Part shown: piece after piece, positions 1-5,738 of the stretch
Numbering within the stretch: the first letter of the stretch is position 1
How the letters are laid out: each line of letters begins with the position of its first letter
Source: a virus
Reading direction: 5' to 3' (one strand)
DNA: 5,738 bases
IMG/VR virus record: IMGVR_UViG_3300023545_000089
Coordinates: 1 to 5,738 of that record
Notes under the pieces: model-generated
What the model was told of the DNA's origin: nothing
The model's input: only the letters and a program-made list of their open reading frames with translations
Database searches by the model: none
Position numbers and translations under genes: made by a program

Positions 1-55
1 GCGGATGCTCAGCGGCAACTGGTTAAACTGTTCCCGCTTCTCGTTCATCATGTTC
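1..55. repeat. Terminal direct repeat: bases 1-55 are identical to 5684-5738. It is the overlap left when a circular 5683-nt genome was linearised, not a biological repeat.
   Basis: The first 55 nt (gcggatgctcagcggcaactggttaaactgttcccgcttctcgttcatcatgttc) recur exactly at the window end. A minus-strand ORF reads continuously across the junction. Confidence 0.95.
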
Positions 56-345
56 ATGTATTCGGTGTAGGTCTGCGGCAGCTTGCTTGTGTCGATGTAC
101 CAGCCCGGCTTTGCCAGCACACTTTCGTCGCCGGCAGCGTATCGGCTCAGAATTGCCATGACGTCGCATTCGTCTTTATAGCTCTGGATTTTTTCGTATG
201 TGTCCACTTCGCCGACCTTTTCCAGATACGGCTGCCCTCGGTCGTCGTATCGCTCCTTGTACTCCGGCTCAAACCGGTTGCCCGGGTTGTTCGGCAGCGC
301 CAGTGGTTTTTTGTCCTCGTAGGGTTTAAAGATTCTTACTCCCAT
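1..345 (-). CDS. N-terminal segment of the same 168-aa VP3-like protein (MGVRIFKPYEDKKPLALPNNPGNRFEPEYKERYDDRGQPYLEKVGEVDTYEKIQSYKDECDVMAILSRYAAGDESVLAKPGWYIDTSKLPQTYTEYMNMMNEKREQFNQLPLSIR...). The start is ATG at 345..343. Positions 1-55 duplicate 5684-5738.
   Basis: Hand translation of the minus strand in the frame of the 5522..5734 ORF. The in-frame stop lies upstream at 363..361, and this is the first ATG after it. An RBS AAGGAG sits 7 nt upstream (revcomp of 353-358). The start overlaps the 3' end of the 87-aa ORF by 20 nt in another frame. Confidence 0.6.
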   Translation of the reverse strand, partial: MGVRIFKPYEDKKPLALPNNPGNRFEPEYKERYDDRGQPYLEKVGEVDTYEKIQSYKDECDVMAILSRYAAGDESVLAKPGWYIDTSKLPQTYTEYMNMMNEKREQFNQLPLSIR

Positions 346-589
346 TGAGCTGCTCCTTTTTCATGAGTTCGATGTTGTACATGAGCATTGGCAGTGCCAG
401 CGGCTTGATCTGGCCGCTTTCGTTGTCGTACTTGCCCAGAAGATAGACTCGCTTATCCTCGCAGTCGGCTTTCTCCATCTCCTGTGCCATCCATTTGAAG
501 GTCCGATCGGCTACTTTTTTGTTGACCACGATCAGATTGCCGAAGATGCCAGACAGTTCGTCTTTTACTGCGTATACCTGAAATTCCAT
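326..589 (-). CDS. 87-aa hypothetical protein. It may be the VP5/C-like small non-structural protein of gokushoviruses, but that is not verified.
   Basis: Track ORF. ATG at 589..587 is preceded by AAGGAG with a 8-nt spacer (TAAAGGAGAATCATCATG), and this RBS overlaps the TAA stop of the upstream 39-aa ORF. It is tightly packed in an operon with neighbouring genes. Confidence 0.6.
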   Translation of the reverse strand: MEFQVYAVKDELSGIFGNLIVVNKKVADRTFKWMAQEMEKADCEDKRVYLLGKYDNESGQIKPLALPMLMYNIELMKKEQLNGSKNL

Positions 590-601
590 GATGATTCTCC
601 T

Positions 602-721
602 TTATAAACGGATGCCGCCGCGCGACGGCTTCGGATTGACGTTGATTTTTTTCGTCTTCTTTGCGGTATTGGTGAAGACTCTCTTATCCTTTTTCGGATT
701 GACCGGCATACGATGTGCCAT
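602..721 (-). CDS. 39-aa highly basic peptide MAHRMPVNPKKDKRVFTNTAKKTKKINVNPKPSRGGIRL. It is a candidate J-like/ORF8-like DNA-binding packaging protein.
   Basis: Absent from the ORF track because it is below the length cut-off. Found by hand: ATG 721..719 has a strong RBS AAGGAGG 7 nt upstream, which overlaps the TAA stop of the preceding 34-aa ORF. Its own stop TAA (604..602) is embedded in the RBS of the 87-aa ORF. It has 13 K/R in 39 aa, like the phiX174 J protein and the chlamydiaphage ORF8. Confidence 0.45.
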   Translation of the reverse strand: MAHRMPVNPKKDKRVFTNTAKKTKKINVNPKPSRGGIRL

Positions 722-722
722 A

Positions 723-827
723 TTACTCCTCCTTATCCAGACCCATGGCGTGGTAAATCTTGTCTAACATCGCAAGGATTTTCCTCAGTTGATTAAAAAT
801 CCCGCGGATGTCTTTCAAAGTAATCAT
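723..827 (-). CDS. 34-aa hypothetical peptide MITLKDIRGIFNQLRKILAMLDKIYHAMGLDKEE, predicted to be an amphipathic helix.
   Basis: Untracked. ATG 827..825 is preceded by AAAGGAGGTG with a 6-nt spacer. Its stop TAA (725..723) overlaps the RBS of the 39-aa ORF (GATAAGGAGGAGTAATATG). It is the first gene after the 828-990 intergenic region. Confidence 0.35.
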   Translation of the reverse strand: MITLKDIRGIFNQLRKILAMLDKIYHAMGLDKEE

Positions 828-939
828 GGCAACACCTCCTTTCTTTTCATATTTGTGTGCAAATAGAAGGTTTCTGACAGTGGAGGCAGAGCATTCCTCC
901 TTTACATTTCGCTGCCAGTCCCCTCATGTCAATTTTACC

Positions 940-987
940 AAAAAAAAAAAAAACGCAAGGTCAACTTTCGTCAATCTCACGTTTTTT
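940..987 (-). terminator. Candidate rho-independent terminator downstream of the 52-aa ORF, with a homopolymer of 14 A (plus strand) = U14 on the sense RNA.
   Basis: Sense RNA: AAAAAACGUGAG-[AUUGACGAAAGUUGAC]-CUUGCGUUUUUUUUUUUUUU. The 6-bp core stem has two G.U wobbles and is extendable by A6/U6, with a 16-nt loop and a U14 tail. On the plus strand the wobbles become C.A mismatches, so the structure is stable only in the transcript of the gene strand. Confidence 0.35.
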
Positions 988-990
988 GGT

Positions 991-1149
991 TTATCTTTCG
1001 TATTCTTTGAGTTTTTCACAGATTGCGTTTGTCCATTCGTCATCCATGTTGTACTCTTCTTTTATCTGCTCTCGGTCTTCGCTTCTCCATCCACCGTCGT
1101 ATAGTGCTGCTGCGCAGTTTTCAACTTCTTCTTCATAGTAGCTTTTCAT
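991..1149 (-). CDS. 52-aa very acidic hypothetical protein MKSYYEEEVENCAAALYDGGWRSEDREQIKEEYNMDDEWTNAICEKLKEYER, with 15 D/E against 7 K/R.
   Basis: Untracked. ATG 1149..1147 is preceded by AGGAGG with a 6-nt spacer and sits directly downstream of promoter P1. It is followed by the hairpin/U14 terminator. The plus-strand track ORFs 808..1104 and 926..1138 are antisense to it and lack an RBS. Confidence 0.45.
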   Translation of the reverse strand: MKSYYEEEVENCAAALYDGGWRSEDREQIKEEYNMDDEWTNAICEKLKEYER

Positions 1150-1190
1150 GGTGTGCCTCCTAGTTTGTGGTGTGCTCTTCTTACACCTTT

Positions 1191-1219
1191 ATTATACACC
1201 TAAAACATACATTTGTCAA
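1191..1219 (-). promoter_or_regulatory. Sigma70-like promoter P1: TTGACA (revcomp of 1214-1219), a 17-nt spacer, then TATAAT (revcomp of 1191-1196). It drives the 52-aa ORF.
   Basis: Both hexamers match consensus perfectly with the optimal 17-nt spacing. It is followed by a 5'UTR and RBS cassette that is nearly identical to the one downstream of P2. Confidence 0.5.
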
Positions 1220-1269
1220 GCAGAACTTTGCCTAGATGGCCGTCCGGTCGGCGCTGGTGCGCCGAATGA

Positions 1270-1307
1270 AAAGGACGGCGTAGCTTTCCGTGACTACGTC
1301 GTCCTTT
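1270..1307 (-). terminator. Candidate intrinsic terminator for the P2-RHH-VP4 transcript, 29 nt after the VP4 stop.
   Basis: Sense RNA: AAAGGACGACGUAG-UCACGGAAAG-CUACGCCGUCCUUU-UCAUUC. The stem is 14 bp with one internal mismatch, G+C rich, and is followed by a U-rich tail (UUUUCAUU). A G+C-rich patch with small hairpins (ggcgctggtgcgcc, 1250-1263) separates it from P1. Confidence 0.4.
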
Positions 1308-1335
1308 CCTTTATTGGCCGTCTCCCCCTGGCCAC

Positions 1336-2514
1336 TTATATTTCATCTCTTCTTAATTTGGAGAACTTTTCTTGATTTTTCGCGTCGATGTTGTTATAAT
1401 GTTCTTGCAGACTATAGCCGTGTTGTGCGAGCTGAGCGAATAGAGCGTCGTTGGCGATTTTCCGCCGCTTTCTCTTTATTTGTTTCAGTTCGTCCGACTC
1501 GGCTTTTATTATTAGAGCTTCGTAATCCTTTTCTGTTTCGGCGTTTAGTGGTTCGCTGTTGCTGTGTTCAAGATCAAAGAGCTTGTCGAAGTATGCTGGC
1601 GGTTTACATTTTTTTCCCTTACTCAGCTGGATACTGTCTTTTTGGTATATCTCATCTTTATGGTCTTCGTAGTATCTCCAGCCGATTGATGGTTTTGTGC
1701 TGATTCTGCTATCTTCTTCCTCGATACACATATCGAGGAATTTTTCTTTTGCTTCGCCATATGCTTTCTTGGAACAGTATGCTGCTGTATATGCCATGTC
1801 GTTCCATTCTGCTACTCCGATGATTACGAAGCCTTTTCCCCATATCTGGTTGAGCCATGCACAGGTGTAGTATACTCTGCCTTTCTGTTTTTTATATATC
1901 TTCAGTTCTTTCGGGTCTATGTATAAGCTGTATACGATCGCGTGATAATGCGGTCTGTGCGTTTTCGTGCCGTATTCTCCACCAGCGTAGTACATGAGTT
2001 TATTTTTCATGCCTACTTTTTCATCATAGACTTGGTACATTCTTTCGTGATACTCTGTCCACCTTCTCAGCCTTTTCCAGAATGCCGTTAAATCATCATA
2101 GTCTAGTGTCAGGTTCGTTGTATACTCTCCGCTTGGAGCTTTCAGCACTCCGTTTTTGTCGATGCCTTTTCCTCTTTCGATGTTGATTGGAACGTGCTCG
2201 TTGTCGTATGTCAACGTCAGGAACCATGCCTGATCGTGATACGGCAGTTCCATCTCCATTCTGTTTGCCCAGCTCTTCCGTCGGTCCAGTATGCACCCTT
2301 GGCAGTGCTTACAAGGTAAAATCACGATTTCGCCGGTTTTGATCTTTGCTTTGATTTCTCGCTCTCTTCTGCGCTGCGTTGCTATGTCGTCAGCTGGTTC
2401 ACTGTTTGGCTTGTTCGACATTCCGTATTTGATATAACGCTCTAGTGAGCTGAAAAAATCGTCTCCGTTTTTCTTCGCTCCGAAGATCCTAATGTTGGGT
2501 CTGCCACATGGCAT
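1336..2514 (-). CDS. Replication initiation protein VP4 (HUH rolling-circle endonuclease), 392 aa.
   Basis: Track ORF. It carries RCR motif I FLTLTYD, motif II HYHAIVY (HUH) and a tyrosine-bearing motif III region MAYTAAYCSKKAYGE. The N-terminal Cys cluster (PCKHCQGC) is typical of gokushovirus VP4. RBS GGGAGGTG lies 8 nt upstream of ATG 2514. About 100 extra C-terminal residues are K/E-rich and include KRKRRK. Confidence 0.9.
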   Translation of the reverse strand: MPCGRPNIRIFGAKKNGDDFFSSLERYIKYGMSNKPNSEPADDIATQRRREREIKAKIKTGEIVILPCKHCQGCILDRRKSWANRMEMELPYHDQAWFLTLTYDNEHVPINIERGKGIDKNGVLKAPSGEYTTNLTLDYDDLTAFWKRLRRWTEYHERMYQVYDEKVGMKNKLMYYAGGEYGTKTHRPHYHAIVYSLYIDPKELKIYKKQKGRVYYTCAWLNQIWGKGFVIIGVAEWNDMAYTAAYCSKKAYGEAKEKFLDMCIEEEDSRISTKPSIGWRYYEDHKDEIYQKDSIQLSKGKKCKPPAYFDKLFDLEHSNSEPLNAETEKDYEALIIKAESDELKQIKRKRRKIANDALFAQLAQHGYSLQEHYNNIDAKNQEKFSKLRRDEI

Positions 2515-2537
2515 GGATGTTTCACCTCCCGGGGTCG

Positions 2538-2580
2538 CACTGGGGGGAAATGTCCCTCTTGATTACATTTCCCCCCAGTG
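2538..2580. promoter_or_regulatory. Perfect 16-bp inverted repeat (cactggggggaaatgt / acatttccccccagtg) with an 11-nt loop (ccctcttgatt), 7 nt upstream of the VP4 SD. It is a candidate origin (dso-like) hairpin and/or operator and/or translational control element.
   Basis: Read directly: the arms 2538-2553 and 2565-2580 are exact reverse complements. It lies in the 148-nt spacer between the RHH ORF and VP4. This spacer also contains an AT-rich imperfect hairpin (acaaaaat 2583-2590 / atttttgt 2618-2625). Confidence 0.6.
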
Positions 2581-2662
2581 ACACAAAAATGCGTCTGACG
2601 GTTACTGTCGGGCCTGTATTTTTGTTGCATTCAGTTTGCACGGCGAAGCCGTCAAACGGCTC

Positions 2663-2854
2663 CTAGTTTATGTCTGTTCCGGTCGAGATTGCAATTCTTG
2701 CTTTCTTTCCGTAAGCGTTGATTGCGTCTCTGATACAGTCGGAGTCATTCATTTTGATTTTGTTTATTCTGTTGTAAGTCTGGATTGATTCCAGAGATTT
2801 AAGTTCTTGTTCGGTCAAGTTGATGTTGAAGCGTTTTGCGATTTGGCTCTTCAT
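2663..2854 (-). CDS. 63-aa ribbon-helix-helix (CopG/Arc/MetJ-like) DNA-binding protein candidate MKSQIAKRFNINLTEQELKSLESIQTYNRINKIKMNDSDCIRDAINAYGKKARIAISTGTDIN.
   Basis: Internal start of track ORF 2663..2992: ATG 2854..2852 has a perfect AGGAGG 6 nt upstream and promoter P2 just before it. The longer 109-aa version would overlap VP2 and lacks an RBS. KRFNINLTEQELKSLE matches the RHH beta-strand plus helix A pattern of CopG (KRLTITLSESVLENLE), and SDCIRDAINAY resembles helix B (SAMISVALENY). Confidence 0.55.
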   Translation of the reverse strand: MKSQIAKRFNINLTEQELKSLESIQTYNRINKIKMNDSDCIRDAINAYGKKARIAISTGTDIN

Positions 2855-2893
2855 GGTTAGCCTCCTAGCTAAGTGTGTGATTGGTACACTCAT

Positions 2894-2922
2894 AATATAC
2901 ACCTCTTTTCTCCACTTGTCAA
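2894..2922 (-). promoter_or_regulatory. Sigma70-like promoter P2: TTGACA (revcomp of 2917-2922), a 17-nt spacer, then TATATT (revcomp of 2894-2899). It drives the RHH ORF and probably VP4.
   Basis: The -35 hexamer begins 5 nt after the VP2 stop. The promoter, 5'UTR and RBS are a paralogous copy of the P1 cassette: ...aggtgTATAtT...gtgta...cacac..ctAGGAGGc..accATGaagagc. Both ORFs start with MKS. Confidence 0.5.
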
Positions 2923-2927
2923 CTACT

Positions 2928-3866
2928 TTATGGCAACATTGGAAGACCCGGTAGTAAGCCGAATTGGCCTTTTGCTGCAAGGCCTGCGTCAAGTCGCCCT
3001 TCGTTCTTAAACTCGTGGCCTTTGGTTTCTTGCTCCTGCTGCGTGGTGCTGTCTATCCGCTCGCCTAGCTGGCCCACGGTTTTTGCGCTGCTGCTTACGG
3101 TTTGCTGTTGCATCTGTTCGAGGTGCTCGGCTGTCCAGTAGTCAGAACTTTGTTTCGCGTTGTTGATGGCCGTCTGAAAGTTCTGCACGATCTGTGCGGT
3201 GTTGTTGCCGTAGTCATACATTGCCTGCATGGTCGCGTTTTTGGCTGCTGGTGCTGCCAGAGCCTGAGCGTGTGCGAAGGTCTGACCGCCACCGAGACTT
3301 CCATATCCTCCTGATGGCGTCTGCGCCCCATAGCCGTTATAGGCTGCTAAGATAGGATTCAATCCCGCTGCTTTAAGGTCTGCCACGCCTCTTTGATAGC
3401 TCGTGTTGGCCATTCGCTCTTGCCAGTCTCTTTGAGCTTTGGCCTCAGCTGAGTTATACCGCATTGCGCTTGTTTGGCTTGCTGCGCTCATTGCATTGGA
3501 TGCTAGAGCGTTTCCCATGTTGAGAAGATTGCCCATCATCCATGTACCGGTCTGCAAGTCGTTGGCTGTTTTTGCGTTCTCTGCGTTGAAGTTCGCTGCG
3601 ATTTGACCATTGTTGCCGGTCGGCGTTCCGAGTGCTGTTGCTAGCAGATTTCCCAGTGCGCTTGTGTTGCCGGTTTGGACGCTTCCACCTGCGCTTGTAG
3701 TGTCCTGTGCGGTGCTTCCCATGGTCGTCCCGCTCTGGATAGTCGAGTTCATACTACCCTGCGTTTTGGCGCTGCTGGTGCTTCCTTTAATTGCGCTGTA
3801 GAGTCCATACAGTGTGTTTGCCAGAGTTAGGCCGCCTTTGACAAGGCCCATTAGCCCGATTGCCAT
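2928..3866 (-). CDS. Minor capsid / DNA pilot protein VP2, 312 aa.
   Basis: Track ORF. It has a hydrophobic N-terminus, a long low-complexity G/A/S/T/N/Q region, and the conserved gokushovirus VP2 motif ...QERMANTSYQRGVADLKAAGLNPILAAY. RBS AAGGAGGTGG overlaps the VP1 stop TAA (3879-3881), and the ATG is at 3866. Confidence 0.8.
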   Translation of the reverse strand: MAIGLMGLVKGGLTLANTLYGLYSAIKGSTSSAKTQGSMNSTIQSGTTMGSTAQDTTSAGGSVQTGNTSALGNLLATALGTPTGNNGQIAANFNAENAKTANDLQTGTWMMGNLLNMGNALASNAMSAASQTSAMRYNSAEAKAQRDWQERMANTSYQRGVADLKAAGLNPILAAYNGYGAQTPSGGYGSLGGGQTFAHAQALAAPAAKNATMQAMYDYGNNTAQIVQNFQTAINNAKQSSDYWTAEHLEQMQQQTVSSSAKTVGQLGERIDSTTQQEQETKGHEFKNEGRLDAGLAAKGQFGLLPGLPMLP

Positions 3867-3878
3867 TGTTCCACCTCC

Positions 3879-5525
3879 TTAGATGGTATCAAGGCCCGGG
3901 ATGCTGTAGATAGGCATTGCCCTTGTCCATGTCTGGTCGAAGTAGAAGTTGCAGATGAATTGGCGGCTGTTTTCGCTCTGGACTGCGATCGTGCGGTCGA
4001 TGTTCTCTGTGCCCTCTTTAATCCAGTCGTTCGAGAGAGTCGGCAGTTTCGTGTATTTGTCGGCATAGTGCCAAGCATCCAGAGTCTGGGCGTAGGTGCT
4101 GCGCATTTCGCCTGTGATCATGTTTGTCCGGTATCGGTAGTCTGCCCAAGCTTCCTGATAGCCGAATACTTCTTCGTCCTGTTCGTTGCCCTGTGCGTAG
4201 ATTTCCTGATTAAGCACTGCTTGCTCACCGAGGTTTGCAAGCATCGGGTCATAGTAGGAAAAGCGCGTGCTGCGTGTCCACAGTCGAGAAAGCCCCTGCT
4301 GGTAGCTGTGATCAACTCGTACTGCTGCCAGACCGATGATAAAACCATGTTCCGTTGCGCTGTACGTTGCCATGTTCCGGCTCATCGTGGTCATGGAGAA
4401 TGCTGCAGTGTTGCCCTGCGGACTCGTCGAGTCCGTGCTGGATGTCTGAATGACCTGATTGATGTTGATAGGCAGTCTGTAGCCGCCGATGTATTCCGAC
4501 CGGTCAAGTCGTGCATCCGGACTCGTTACGCCCCAAGCACCCTGTAAGATTTCCTTGTACCGTGTGCCGGTGCGTGCATCTCTTTCCATGATGTGCTGCA
4601 CTGCGATAGCTTGTCGGAGTTCGTTTATGGTTGCTGCGGTTGCATTTGAGAGGTCTGCTCCTAAGTTTATTCCGCCTGTTGCGCCGCTGCTGGTGGTCGT
4701 CATTGCCAGCCCTTTGTCTCTATATGGGCCGTCTCCTATATCCCAGTAAGGCGCAAAGAATGGATTTTCTTCTATTCCTACTTCCGTGGCGATGGCTTTC
4801 ATCTTGTCGGTTTTTGTCGTGACGTCTCCAGTTGACGGATTGTAAAATCCGATTGGTACGCCTCCGGTCATCGGCAGCGTCACGGCCTCGCCTTTCTGAG
4901 GATTCGGCAGGCAGCTTGTGAAGTAGTCCTTGTACTTACATACTTTGAGCGGCAGGCCTCCGGCTTCGGCGTCGGTGAGTGCTGTTCCTGCGTTGCTTCC
5001 TGCGGTCGTGGCGTCCGTCTTGCTCATCGTGACAGGCTGCTGTAAATTTTCGTCTCGAAACCATTCGTTCCAGATTTTGGCATATGCCCGGAAAGGCAGG
5101 CTGTTTACCTGTAGGTTTTCTACTCCGGTCGGAATGCCGAAGTAGTCCGCCAGCGTGCCAACTTTCCAGCCGCCAGTTGGTGCGGTCGTTTTCGGAGTCG
5201 TGTACTCTACTTTTTCAGCCCAGAAGGTGCTGTCGTTCTGACCCATGAGGTTTTCGAAATGCTCCCATAGCAGCCGCGATGGTACGAAGAAGAAGTAAAA
5301 GTCACAGTAACAGTTATCCATGACAGGATACAGCGGAGTGCTCATGCGCATAAGTGCATTGAGATCGATCTTTGCCGTGTCTGCCGGTAGAACTTCGTCA
5401 CAGTAGATCGGAATCAGATCGCCTTCGTTCATGGTCGTCAGCAGGCTATAATCCCGTTTGAATCTTGCACGTGGCACATTTGCATGAGGCACTTGGCTGT
5501 AGTGCTGTTCGGCGTTTCGGTTCAT
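3879..5525 (-). CDS. Major capsid protein VP1 (F-like), 548 aa.
   Basis: Track ORF. Its size and N-terminal region (…RARFKRDYSLLTTMNEGDLIPIYCDEVLPADT…PVMDNCYCDFYFFFVPSRLLWEHFENLMG) are characteristic of gokushovirus VP1. Its start is coupled (ATGA) to the upstream 168-aa ORF. Confidence 0.9.
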   Translation of the reverse strand: MNRNAEQHYSQVPHANVPRARFKRDYSLLTTMNEGDLIPIYCDEVLPADTAKIDLNALMRMSTPLYPVMDNCYCDFYFFFVPSRLLWEHFENLMGQNDSTFWAEKVEYTTPKTTAPTGGWKVGTLADYFGIPTGVENLQVNSLPFRAYAKIWNEWFRDENLQQPVTMSKTDATTAGSNAGTALTDAEAGGLPLKVCKYKDYFTSCLPNPQKGEAVTLPMTGGVPIGFYNPSTGDVTTKTDKMKAIATEVGIEENPFFAPYWDIGDGPYRDKGLAMTTTSSGATGGINLGADLSNATAATINELRQAIAVQHIMERDARTGTRYKEILQGAWGVTSPDARLDRSEYIGGYRLPININQVIQTSSTDSTSPQGNTAAFSMTTMSRNMATYSATEHGFIIGLAAVRVDHSYQQGLSRLWTRSTRFSYYDPMLANLGEQAVLNQEIYAQGNEQDEEVFGYQEAWADYRYRTNMITGEMRSTYAQTLDAWHYADKYTKLPTLSNDWIKEGTENIDRTIAVQSENSRQFICNFYFDQTWTRAMPIYSIPGLDTI

Positions 5526-5738
5526 TCCTTATTTTCTCCTTTCTGTACAGTTTTTTCAGCTGTAGCATCGACCTTCTCTTGTGTCTTTTGTGTATTCTGC
5601 TGAATTTTGATGCCCATTTTGTCGAGCCACTCTTTTTCACCGGCTGTTGCCATCCAGTTTTCGAAGTTCATGCCGAATGCTTGGCGGATGCTCAGCGGCA
5701 ACTGGTTAAACTGTTCCCGCTTCTCGTTCATCATGTTC
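5522..5738 (-). CDS. C-terminal segment of a 168-aa VP3-like (internal scaffolding candidate) protein. The ORF runs off the window end and continues at 1..345 because the genome is circular. Its stop TGA (5522-5524) overlaps the VP1 ATG (5525-5523) as ATGA.
   Basis: Track ORF 5522..5734. The two ATGs at the window edge are internal Mets: in the same frame the ORF extends through the repeat to an upstream ATG at 345..343. The stop/start overlap with VP1 indicates translational coupling. The VP3 identity rests only on size and position. Confidence 0.6.
   Translation of the reverse strand, partial: NMMNEKREQFNQLPLSIRQAFGMNFENWMATAGEKEWLDKMGIKIQQNTQKTQEKVDATAEKTVQKGENKE

Follow-up and report, generated by a model that had tools for sequence, protein, structure and literature searches.

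A conserved promoter element, candidate operator of a putative ribbon-helix-helix repressor, ahead of the replication initiator gene in a clade of gut gokushoviruses

We analysed a stretch of viral DNA of 5,738 nt (IMG/VR record IMGVR_UViG_3300023545_000089, positions 1 to 5,738; hereafter the window) and focused on two promoters of its minus strand, P1 and P2, each carrying an inverted repeat. P2 precedes orf63, a small open reading frame (ORF) for a putative ribbon-helix-helix (RHH) DNA-binding protein, which is followed by VP4, the gene of the rolling-circle replication initiator (Rep); P1 precedes orf52, an acidic accessory ORF. The P2 element was conserved in 57/57 related genomes and strictly linked to the RHH gene. 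On balance, we consider it probable that this element, together with a GGTGTA box abutting the -10 hexamer, is the operator at which the RHH protein would repress its own RHH-Rep operon, with P1 as a paralogue. The elements concerned are listed below, the predicted start (+1) being taken as the seventh base past the -10 hexamer.

1219-1214, minus strand: P1 -35 hexamer TTGACA, promoter score 12/12
1208-1212, minus strand: degenerate third direct box ATGTA in the P1 spacer (AGTGTAT in most relatives)
1200-1195, minus strand: P1 upstream box GGTGTA, overlapping the -10 hexamer TATAAT
1196-1191, minus strand: P1 -10 hexamer TATAAT, 17-nt spacer from the -35 hexamer
1187-1169, minus strand: P1 inverted repeat GGTGT-AAGAAGAGC-ACACC (read by boxes, GGTGTA-AGAAGAGC-ACACC), with AAA between the -10 hexamer and the repeat
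1184, minus strand: predicted P1 +1 (G)
1161-1156, minus strand: AGGAGG, 7 nt downstream of the P1 repeat, followed by 6 nt and the ATG at 1149-1147 (ATG AAA AGC, protein start MKS)
991-1161, minus strand: orf52, 52 aa, acidic accessory ORF, including its Shine-Dalgarno (SD) sequence AGGAGG (1161-1156)
2922-2917, minus strand: P2 -35 hexamer TTGACA, 5 nt past the VP2 stop codon, promoter score 11/12
2903-2898, minus strand: P2 upstream box GGTGTA, overlapping the -10 hexamer TATATT
2899-2894, minus strand: P2 -10 hexamer TATATT, 17-nt spacer from the -35 hexamer
2890-2872, minus strand: P2 inverted repeat and candidate operator AGTGT-ACCAATCAC-ACACT (boxes AGTGTA-CC-AATC-AC-ACACT), with ATG between the -10 hexamer and the repeat
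2887, minus strand: predicted P2 +1 (G)
2882-2879, minus strand: central AATC of the P2 element, conserved, outside the symmetry of the repeat
2866-2861, minus strand: AGGAGG, 5 nt downstream of the P2 repeat, followed by 6 nt and the ATG at 2854-2852 (ATG AAG AGC, protein start MKS)
2854-2663, minus strand: orf63, putative RHH DNA-binding protein, with SD AGGAGG at 2866-2861
2514-1336, minus strand: VP4, rolling-circle replication initiator, second gene of the P2 operon (Pfam REP_ORF2-G2P, PF23343, E 1.2e-13; phrog_942, E 2.9e-85)

A preliminary description of this DNA had reported two cassettes, each with a promoter, an inverted repeat, an SD sequence and an ATG opening a protein that begins MKS, and the sequence of the minus strand was as described, except that the gap from repeat to SD was 7 nt at P1 and 5 nt at P2 rather than about 8 nt. 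The repeat had also been placed exactly at the transcription start. It does lie over the predicted start, but the -10 spacing puts that start inside the left arm, the repeat spanning about -3 to +16. P1 (12/12) and P2 (11/12) were the two best sigma-70 promoter matches of the genome, both with 17-nt spacers, and in the four GenBank relatives they were the sole matches scoring at least 10/12. Judged by near-consensus hexamers, 17-nt spacer, downstream SD and start codon, and retention in relatives, both are sigma-70/sigma-A promoters.

The two 79-nt cassettes were aligned with their flanks. The results showed 56/79 identical positions (71%) inside the cassette, compared with 32% identity over 41 nt upstream and 31% over 51 nt of coding sequence downstream; the similarity is therefore limited to the cassette, as had been predicted. 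With the -35, -10, SD and ATG positions left out, 36/59 positions were still identical (binomial p ~8e-7 against a 30% background). P1 and P2 spacers taken from different genomes differed at as few as 2/17 positions, and some P1 copies differed from the P2 spacer of the window itself at 2/17. Since the P1 spacer is nearly identical to some P2 spacers, the idea of a duplicated promoter is right, and by this likeness P1 and P2 are paralogous promoters for host RNA polymerase. The extension of the duplicated unit to the 5' untranslated region, SD and MKS start was not upheld: orthologous P1 leaders differ from that of the window and are shorter, so the shared SD, ATG and MKS are attributed to translation signals and chance, not to duplication. 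The pattern GTGT-N9-ACAC occurred exactly twice in the genome, both times at P1 and P2, where 0.03 occurrences were expected, and none of 200 shuffled sequences reached two.

We assembled 58 distinct related genomes from four GenBank records, a scan of IMG/VR with the shared promoter core AGGTGTATAWTAWRRGTGTA, and two further scans, one with a conserved peptide of the small ORF (independent of the DNA motif) and one with VP4. The peptide scan returned 37 loci, 33 of which the DNA motif had already found, and the four new ones had the same architecture with slightly different -10 hexamers; we therefore take the ascertainment bias to be small. All of the loci retrieved by the RHH peptide without use of the DNA motif (37/37) carried the P2 element. 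These relatives are not near-clonal, as their RHH proteins are 29-65% identical to that of the window and their VP4 proteins 47-64%.

P2 was found in 57/57 genomes as TTGACA, a 16-18 nt spacer ending in RGGTG, TATAWT, ATG and R-GTGTA-NN-AAYC-NN-ACRC-Y, and the expectation that the half-site pattern would be conserved in related genomes was borne out at this promoter. Entropy was zero at 24/33 positions of the stretch that starts with the GGTG box and closes with the repeat, whereas synonymous sites lying ~50 nt further downstream in the same genomes (third positions of the KRxNxNLT codons) had 0.64-1.87 bits. The 5' part of the P2 spacer and the leader downstream varied freely. GGTG directly 5' of the -10 hexamer was unchanged in every P2 and in almost every P1. 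All five repeat pairs were kept in 38/38 distinct P2 variants, with an outer pair of A-T in 16, G.T in 12 and G-C in 10, and a third pair of T-A in 36 and T.G in 2. The switch from A-T to G-C was seen on two different inner sequence backgrounds and must therefore have happened more than once. A full 17-bp palindrome was rejected as a general feature, its inner pairs holding in 43% of cells only; by its conservation, the P2 element is instead a 5+5 repeat with a conserved AATC, itself asymmetric, at its centre.

A short frame opens at the ATG that follows the -10 hexamer, and GAGGTG-TATATT-ATG at P2 (2891-2903, minus strand) can also be read as a good SD with its start codon; this frame is in phase with orf63 in the window, hence a listed ORF of 109 aa. 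The variable dinucleotides of the element fall at positions 1 and 2 of its codons while position 3 is invariant, so that the constraint on P2 is not coding. The mini-ORF was rejected on this ground and also on its length, as the frame ends after 9-13 codons in relatives, often at a TAG inside the orf63 SD. Taken together with the diverged synonymous sites, this pattern argues that the P2 repeat is a selected cis-element under strong purifying selection.

The linkage between promoter, element and gene was then examined. Among nine gokushoviruses without the RHH gene (L121-L125 and L127-L130), a P2 bearing the inverted repeat was present in 0/9, and 6/9 had no promoter scoring at least 10/12 between VP2 and VP4. 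Their strong promoters elsewhere had TGN extended -10 elements, with GGTG or GTGTA boxes in none. MG945373 has the ORF and also P2 with the element. Because RHH-less genomes lack both and MG945373 has both, P2, its element and the RHH gene behave as one module inserted before VP4. The order P2, orf63, VP4 was the same in all relatives, and on the minus strand the orf63-VP4 interval yielded no promoter-like or terminator-like call. CopG-type operons are arranged in this way, with one promoter serving an RHH gene and, directly after it, the gene of a rolling-circle initiator. It is chiefly on the linkage of promoter, element and gene that the reading of the element as an operator rests.

An ORF of 53-79 aa lay directly 3' of P2, before VP4, in every genome of the 57-genome set. 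An alignment of 23 family members showed invariant R8, N10, L13, T14, S38 and R42, with K7, N12 and D39 at 90% or more; the N-terminal motif reads K7-R8-[FIMVT]9-N10-[IV]11-N12-L13-T14, a second conserved helix reads S-D-I-I-R-D-A-I, and the C-terminal tails are mosaic. R8, N10 and N12 alternate with hydrophobic residues, and the DNA-reading strand residues of Arc, Mnt and CopG show such alternation. The family thus has the N-terminal strand pattern followed by two helices of the Arc/MetJ/CopG class. Pfam RHH_1 matched 10/23 members (best E 6.4e-4), hhalign against CopG gave a probability of 70% (E 4e-5) over the strand and both helices, and a PDB profile search returned TTHA0139 (E 0.029) and ORF56 (E 0.78). 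Weak NCBIfam matches were to aCcr1, ORF56, NikR and RelB, all of which we take to be RHH families, and one homologue had been named an Arc/MetJ-type RHH regulator by JGI. The window's orf63 taken singly had no significant Pfam or PHROG match. An AlphaFold monomer had helices at 15-30 and 37-58, with the strand itself modelled as a short helix, and structure searches with this model returned nothing informative, as is expected of an obligate intertwined dimer. These lines of evidence are individually weak and consistent with one another, and orf63 is accordingly described as a putative RHH protein.

A profile search returned 412 homologues, nearly all on contigs of microvirus size (~5.6 kb). 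The small ORF was unannotated in all six GenBank phage records that have it (KX513873, MG945797, MG945186, MG945569, MT135351 and MG945373). In one relative, L036 (IMGVR_UViG_3300045988_046501), the RHH ORF is tandem-duplicated and fused into a 102-aa frame, possibly through an error of assembly, possibly as a natural single-chain RHH.

P1 was less constant. It was present in about 33-37 of the 58 relatives and absent or decayed in about 20/58, with the consensus TTGACA-AGTGTAT-N5-AGGTG-TATAAT-AAA-GGTGTA, in which three direct GTGTA boxes recur at 13-bp intervals; the first seven spacer bases are conserved and the next five vary. The left box GGTGTA at +1 was conserved in nearly all P1 copies, and the feature that P1 and P2 share in all relatives is the pair of direct GGTGTA boxes that bracket the -10 hexamer. 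At the 9-bp spacing, the distal ACAC arm was carried by the window, L040, L053 and L067, and by L014 and L056 within a (CA)n run, in two sequence types; in L061 one pair of the repeat is broken by GATGT. Most P1 copies had the +1 box followed by a short leader (GGTGTAGAAAGGATGG...ATG), and the leader of the window type, including CTAGGAGGC and a second CACACC, was restricted to the small group to which the window belongs. Relatives differed in the small ORF that occupies the slot after P1. By this distribution, P1 is an optional module that would drive a single accessory ORF ahead of a terminator.

Several relatives had lost parts of this region. In L012 (IMGVR_UViG_3300045988_008084), a 13-bp deletion between two direct GGTGTA boxes removes the P1 -10 hexamer; L020, close to the window, has no P1 at all; and L068 and L011 keep the promoter, with the leader or the downstream ORF lost.

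In the mechanism we propose, P2 would drive a two-gene operon of the RHH gene orf63 and then VP4, and its operator would consist of the 19-bp RGTGTA-NN-AATC-NN-ACAC-Y over the start together with a second GGTGTA box at the -10 hexamer. As RHH dimers accumulate, they would occupy boxes that bracket the -10 hexamer and +1, and the bound protein would exclude or stall RNA polymerase, giving negative feedback on the synthesis of both RHH and Rep. The conserved boxes do bracket the P2 -10 hexamer and cover -3 to +16; their occupancy by RHH is predicted. P1 would be a copy of this promoter core, carrying two or three GGTGTA boxes in direct orientation and placed before an exchangeable accessory ORF and possibly, with less certainty, co-repressed by the same protein through the shared direct boxes. 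In the lineage of the window, P1 would also have gained the distal ACAC arm at the same 9-bp spacing.

Several observations weigh against an RHH operator of this form. The 4-bp boxes are 9 bp apart here (13 bp centre to centre), compared with 5 bp in the solved RHH operators of Arc and CopG. The conserved AATC centre is asymmetric, and the inner palindromic pairs hold in no more than the 43% of cells given above. The mismatches of the repeat are all G.T and never A.C, which also fits pairing in RNA or single-stranded DNA. The linkage is in effect that of one clade. No second RHH-bearing microvirus clade was found, and no change in an RHH residue was matched to a change in the operator; the putative DNA-facing residues are invariant, and co-variation between them and the operator gave no usable signal. 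For P1, the distal arm is absent in 26/33 copies and present at N9 in 6/33, and the P1 boxes tolerate GATGTA variants that were never seen at P2. The preliminary description had proposed that orf52 and the RHH-Rep operon are co-regulated. Of this, the paralogy of P1 with P2 and the two direct GGTGTA boxes common to both stand, while the scarcity of the ACAC arm at P1 and the loss or decay of P1 in about 20/58 relatives do not fit, and the half-site pattern as an operator common to both promoters was not retained.

Instead of binding a phage repressor, the boxes might be promoter-intrinsic elements or sites for a host factor, in strong constitutive promoters such as those of phiX174. Both shared boxes touch regions contacted by RNA polymerase (-16 to -11 and -2 to +3), and the boxes are kept at P1 even without the distal arm, so that an intrinsic role explains P1 well. 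A 20-mer identical to the P2 core was also found in a promoter-like context in an Oscillospiraceae metagenome-assembled genome (MAG), with no RHH gene nearby. However, when the P2 core pattern was searched across 185,579 genomes for prophages and hosts, it returned eight stretches, five of them independent and none in a microvirus, which is near the chance expectation of about 4 independent matches (an estimate for ~600 Gb). The conservation of P2 extends to +15 (AATC and ACAC, +6 to +15), past the sequence-specific contacts of the polymerase, and GGTG stands one base nearer the -10 hexamer than the TG of an extended -10 element. RHH-less relatives from the same kinds of sample use canonical TGN extended -10 promoters without GGTG or GTGTA boxes. 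We regard this explanation as unlikely.

The repeat could alternatively act as a hairpin rather than as a duplex operator, either near the 5' end of the mRNA, where it would stabilise the message or tune its translation, or in the single-stranded DNA that is packaged. Under RNA rules 100% of cells are paired, with G.U in 12/38 outer pairs and 2/38 third pairs and A.C never, and two further outer pairs are mostly kept (G.U or G-C in 38/38; U-A or U-G in 25/38). In three long-leader lineages of P1, GGTGT is followed further on by (CA)n or ACACC, and a similar GGTGT...ACACC follows the -10 hexamer of a Clostridia MAG gene and of an unrelated phage contig. Against this, the start predicted by -10 spacing lies inside the left arm, which would leave the transcript without most of the stem. 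The hairpins, with about -2 to -5 kcal/mol, are weak and do not outperform shuffled sequences (z -0.1 to -1.9). The would-be loop AATC and the A after GTGT are conserved as much as the stem, and the GGTG box, which is not transcribed, is equally conserved. Change on both sides was seen in 1/5 pairs of the repeat, compared with 13/15 in a hairpin upstream of VP4 (described below). A hairpin role is accordingly judged quite improbable.

Similar arrangements, which bear on the hairpin explanation, were noted anecdotally outside the clade: in L134, L137 and L138 (Eubacteriales/Clostridia MAGs) and L045 (an unrelated phage contig), TATAAT-ATR-GGTGTA lies at the start, with ACACC 10-13 nt downstream. 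One example from an unrelated promoter has GGTGT-N10-ACACC ahead of a gene starting MKALKLNKDNFDSAIRSEK.

That the resemblance reflects consensus signals (-35, -10, SD and ATG) plus chance, with a repeat of no function, is hardly credible: 20/56 of the identical positions are indeed consensus signals and the SD/ATG/MKS part of P1 is not conserved in relatives, but the non-consensus identities (36/59, p ~8e-7), the two GTGT-N9-ACAC repeats against 0.03 expected, and a P2 element fixed across 57 genomes whose synonymous sites have diverged all speak otherwise.

The reading of P2 as the operator of an RHH autorepressor was compared with known systems. In plasmid pMV158, CopG is co-transcribed with repB and represses the promoter Pcr by binding over it; its operator, which has the -35 hexamer at its centre, is a 13-bp pseudo-symmetric element in which 5 bp separate the TGCA boxes, with ~50 bp contacted, and the TAGA boxes of Arc are likewise 5 bp apart (PMC2724298). 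As at P2, a small RHH gene (45 aa in pMV158) lies directly upstream of an HUH initiator gene under one promoter, and orf63 aligns with CopG (hhalign, 70%). The pMV158 operator overlaps the promoter and gives negative feedback on Rep, as is proposed for P2. Unlike in CopG, 9 bp separate the GTGT/ACAC boxes, which cover the start, and another direct box stands at the -10 hexamer; the CopG geometry (13-bp element, boxes 5 bp apart, over the -35 hexamer) was not found at P2. pMV158 is moreover a plasmid, and no antisense RNA partner was identified in the phage.

Arc and Mnt of the P22 immI region are phage-encoded RHH repressors with inverted 4-bp boxes overlapping promoters, and orf63 has its R-x-N-x-N in the same place. 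In Arc, alternate beta-strand residues (Gln, Asn and Arg) read the DNA. Unlike the microvirus studied here, P22 is a temperate phage with double-stranded DNA, and Arc controls the synthesis of an antirepressor, not of a replication initiator. The RHH protein RelB reads hexads of the form [A/T]TGT[A/C]A (PMC2812701). These resemble the GTGTA boxes, and several subsites cover the promoter in both cases; however, the hexads of relO are contiguous (12-bp half-sites, no spacing allowed), whereas the boxes here recur every 13 bp. RelB also requires the toxin RelE as co-repressor, and there is no toxin partner here.

Genomes of Microviridae are read by host RNA polymerase from a small number of sigma-70 promoters (PA, PB and PD in phiX174), with leaky terminators. 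To our knowledge, phiX174 expression is constitutive, no phage-encoded transcription factor has been described for it, and Microviridae in general are regarded as phages without regulators of their own. Compared with phiX174, the present clade adds a putative repressor with operator-bearing promoters. We suggest, tentatively and with somewhat less than even confidence, that a lineage of gut gokushoviruses acquired a plasmid-style copy-control module (RHH autorepressor and operator-promoter before Rep) and then duplicated the operator-promoter, bringing an exchangeable accessory gene under the same circuit. Such circuits are known from rolling-circle plasmids and phage P22. Our literature search on a link between Microviridae and RHH proteins, and on regulators, promoters and origin hairpins of microviruses or gokushoviruses, returned nothing relevant, and an RHH-repressor circuit in Microviridae appears to be undescribed. 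If true, this would be the first gene regulation based on a transcription factor described in Microviridae, and it could let the phage throttle its replication, or persist in a non-lytic carrier state, within Firmicutes hosts. A phage-encoded repressor feeding back on Rep would change the regulator-less picture for an abundant gut clade, and the module, a compact set of promoter, operator and repressor, would tie the control of microvirus replication to the CopG-RepB logic of rolling-circle plasmids.

The remaining genes were mapped by Pfam and PHROG matches. The genome is circular and 5683 nt long, since window bases 1-55 are a terminal repeat of 5684-5738. By gene content it is a gokushovirus-type microvirus, with all genes on the minus strand. 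In addition to orf63, VP4 and orf52 (the last without a family match in Pfam or PHROG), the following were located:

5525-3879, minus strand: VP1, capsid protein (Pfam Phage_F, E 1.6e-165)
3866-2928, minus strand: VP2, pilot protein, stop codon at 2928-2930
345 across the junction to 5522, minus strand: VP3, scaffold protein of the Chlamydia-phage type
589-326, minus strand: ORF5/VP5
721-602, minus strand: basic protein of 39 aa

The nearest GenBank records are pig and human gut microviruses, with ~81% identity over the structural genes only, and the host of this gut gokushovirus is probably a member of the Firmicutes. Rfam, searched up to E 1, gave no match in the whole window. The replication module (orf63 and VP4) was mosaic when window positions 1336-2922 were compared with L001-L004: the structural genes are ~81% identical in DNA to the GenBank relatives, and the VP4 protein is ~47% identical. 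The conserved islands at the edges of this module are P2 and P1, and the paralogous promoters may therefore serve as recombination junctions too. A 48-kb contig (L139, ENA ERZ27281030 k141_41694) carries a whole microvirus genome at its end, beside plasmid-like genes. As a prophage or integration event this contig was rejected, because it ends in the Illumina adapter AGATCGGAAGAGCACACGT, its other junction lacks the T-run region and it looks chimeric.

Two sites bear on the ends of the transcription units, the second of them including a possible third promoter:

1312-1265, minus strand: terminator-like hairpin (inverted repeat, terminator call) and T run after VP4, with an equivalent in relatives
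983-932, minus strand: directly after orf52, terminator hairpin with G.U pairs (983-952), T14 run (953-940) and extended -10 element TGGTAAAAT (940-932)

The T run with an extended -10-like T[G/A]NTANAAT was present in 54/58 genomes, including genomes without P1; most of the copies shown were preceded by a hairpin, and the stems differ between clades in a compensatory manner. This candidate third promoter, P3, has no GTGTA boxes. The hairpin at 1312-1265 likely ends the P2 unit and the 983-932 site the P1 unit, and the extended -10 element is likely P3, a third promoter for the structural genes. The likely map is thus P2 for RHH and VP4, P1 for one exchangeable accessory ORF and P3 for the structural genes, and on this map a regulon of orf52 and RHH-Rep would link an accessory gene to replication, not to late genes. 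Many IMG/VR contigs show duplications of ~100 nt starting at the T run, which are probably assembly slips.

A perfect 16-bp hairpin, CACTGGGGGGAAATGT-AATCAAGAGGG-ACATTTCCCCCCAGTG, was found between orf63 and the VP4 SD (2538-2580, minus strand, with a 5' flank to ~2590). An equivalent was present in nearly all RHH-bearing relatives readable there, and the examined gokushoviruses without RHH included at least four that have one. Compensatory changes were seen in 13/15 predicted pairs, the 5' flank TGTCA and the loop CAAG did not vary, and the hairpin is not followed by a T run. Read as its reverse complement, CCYTCTTGAT, the loop resembles the phiX174/pC194 nick motif CTTGATA, but on the non-coding strand. 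This hairpin is a candidate origin of replication or of the complementary strand, or a candidate control element of VP4.

Finally, a promoter-like site was noted on the plus strand at 1372-1400, antisense to the 3' end of VP4 (TTGATT-17-TATAAT, with TG before the -10 hexamer, 10/12). Relatives whose VP4 types are divergent (L016, L031, L036, L037, L065 and L010) carry comparable antisense sites in this position, and the site may represent either an antisense promoter or a side effect of codon conservation in VP4.

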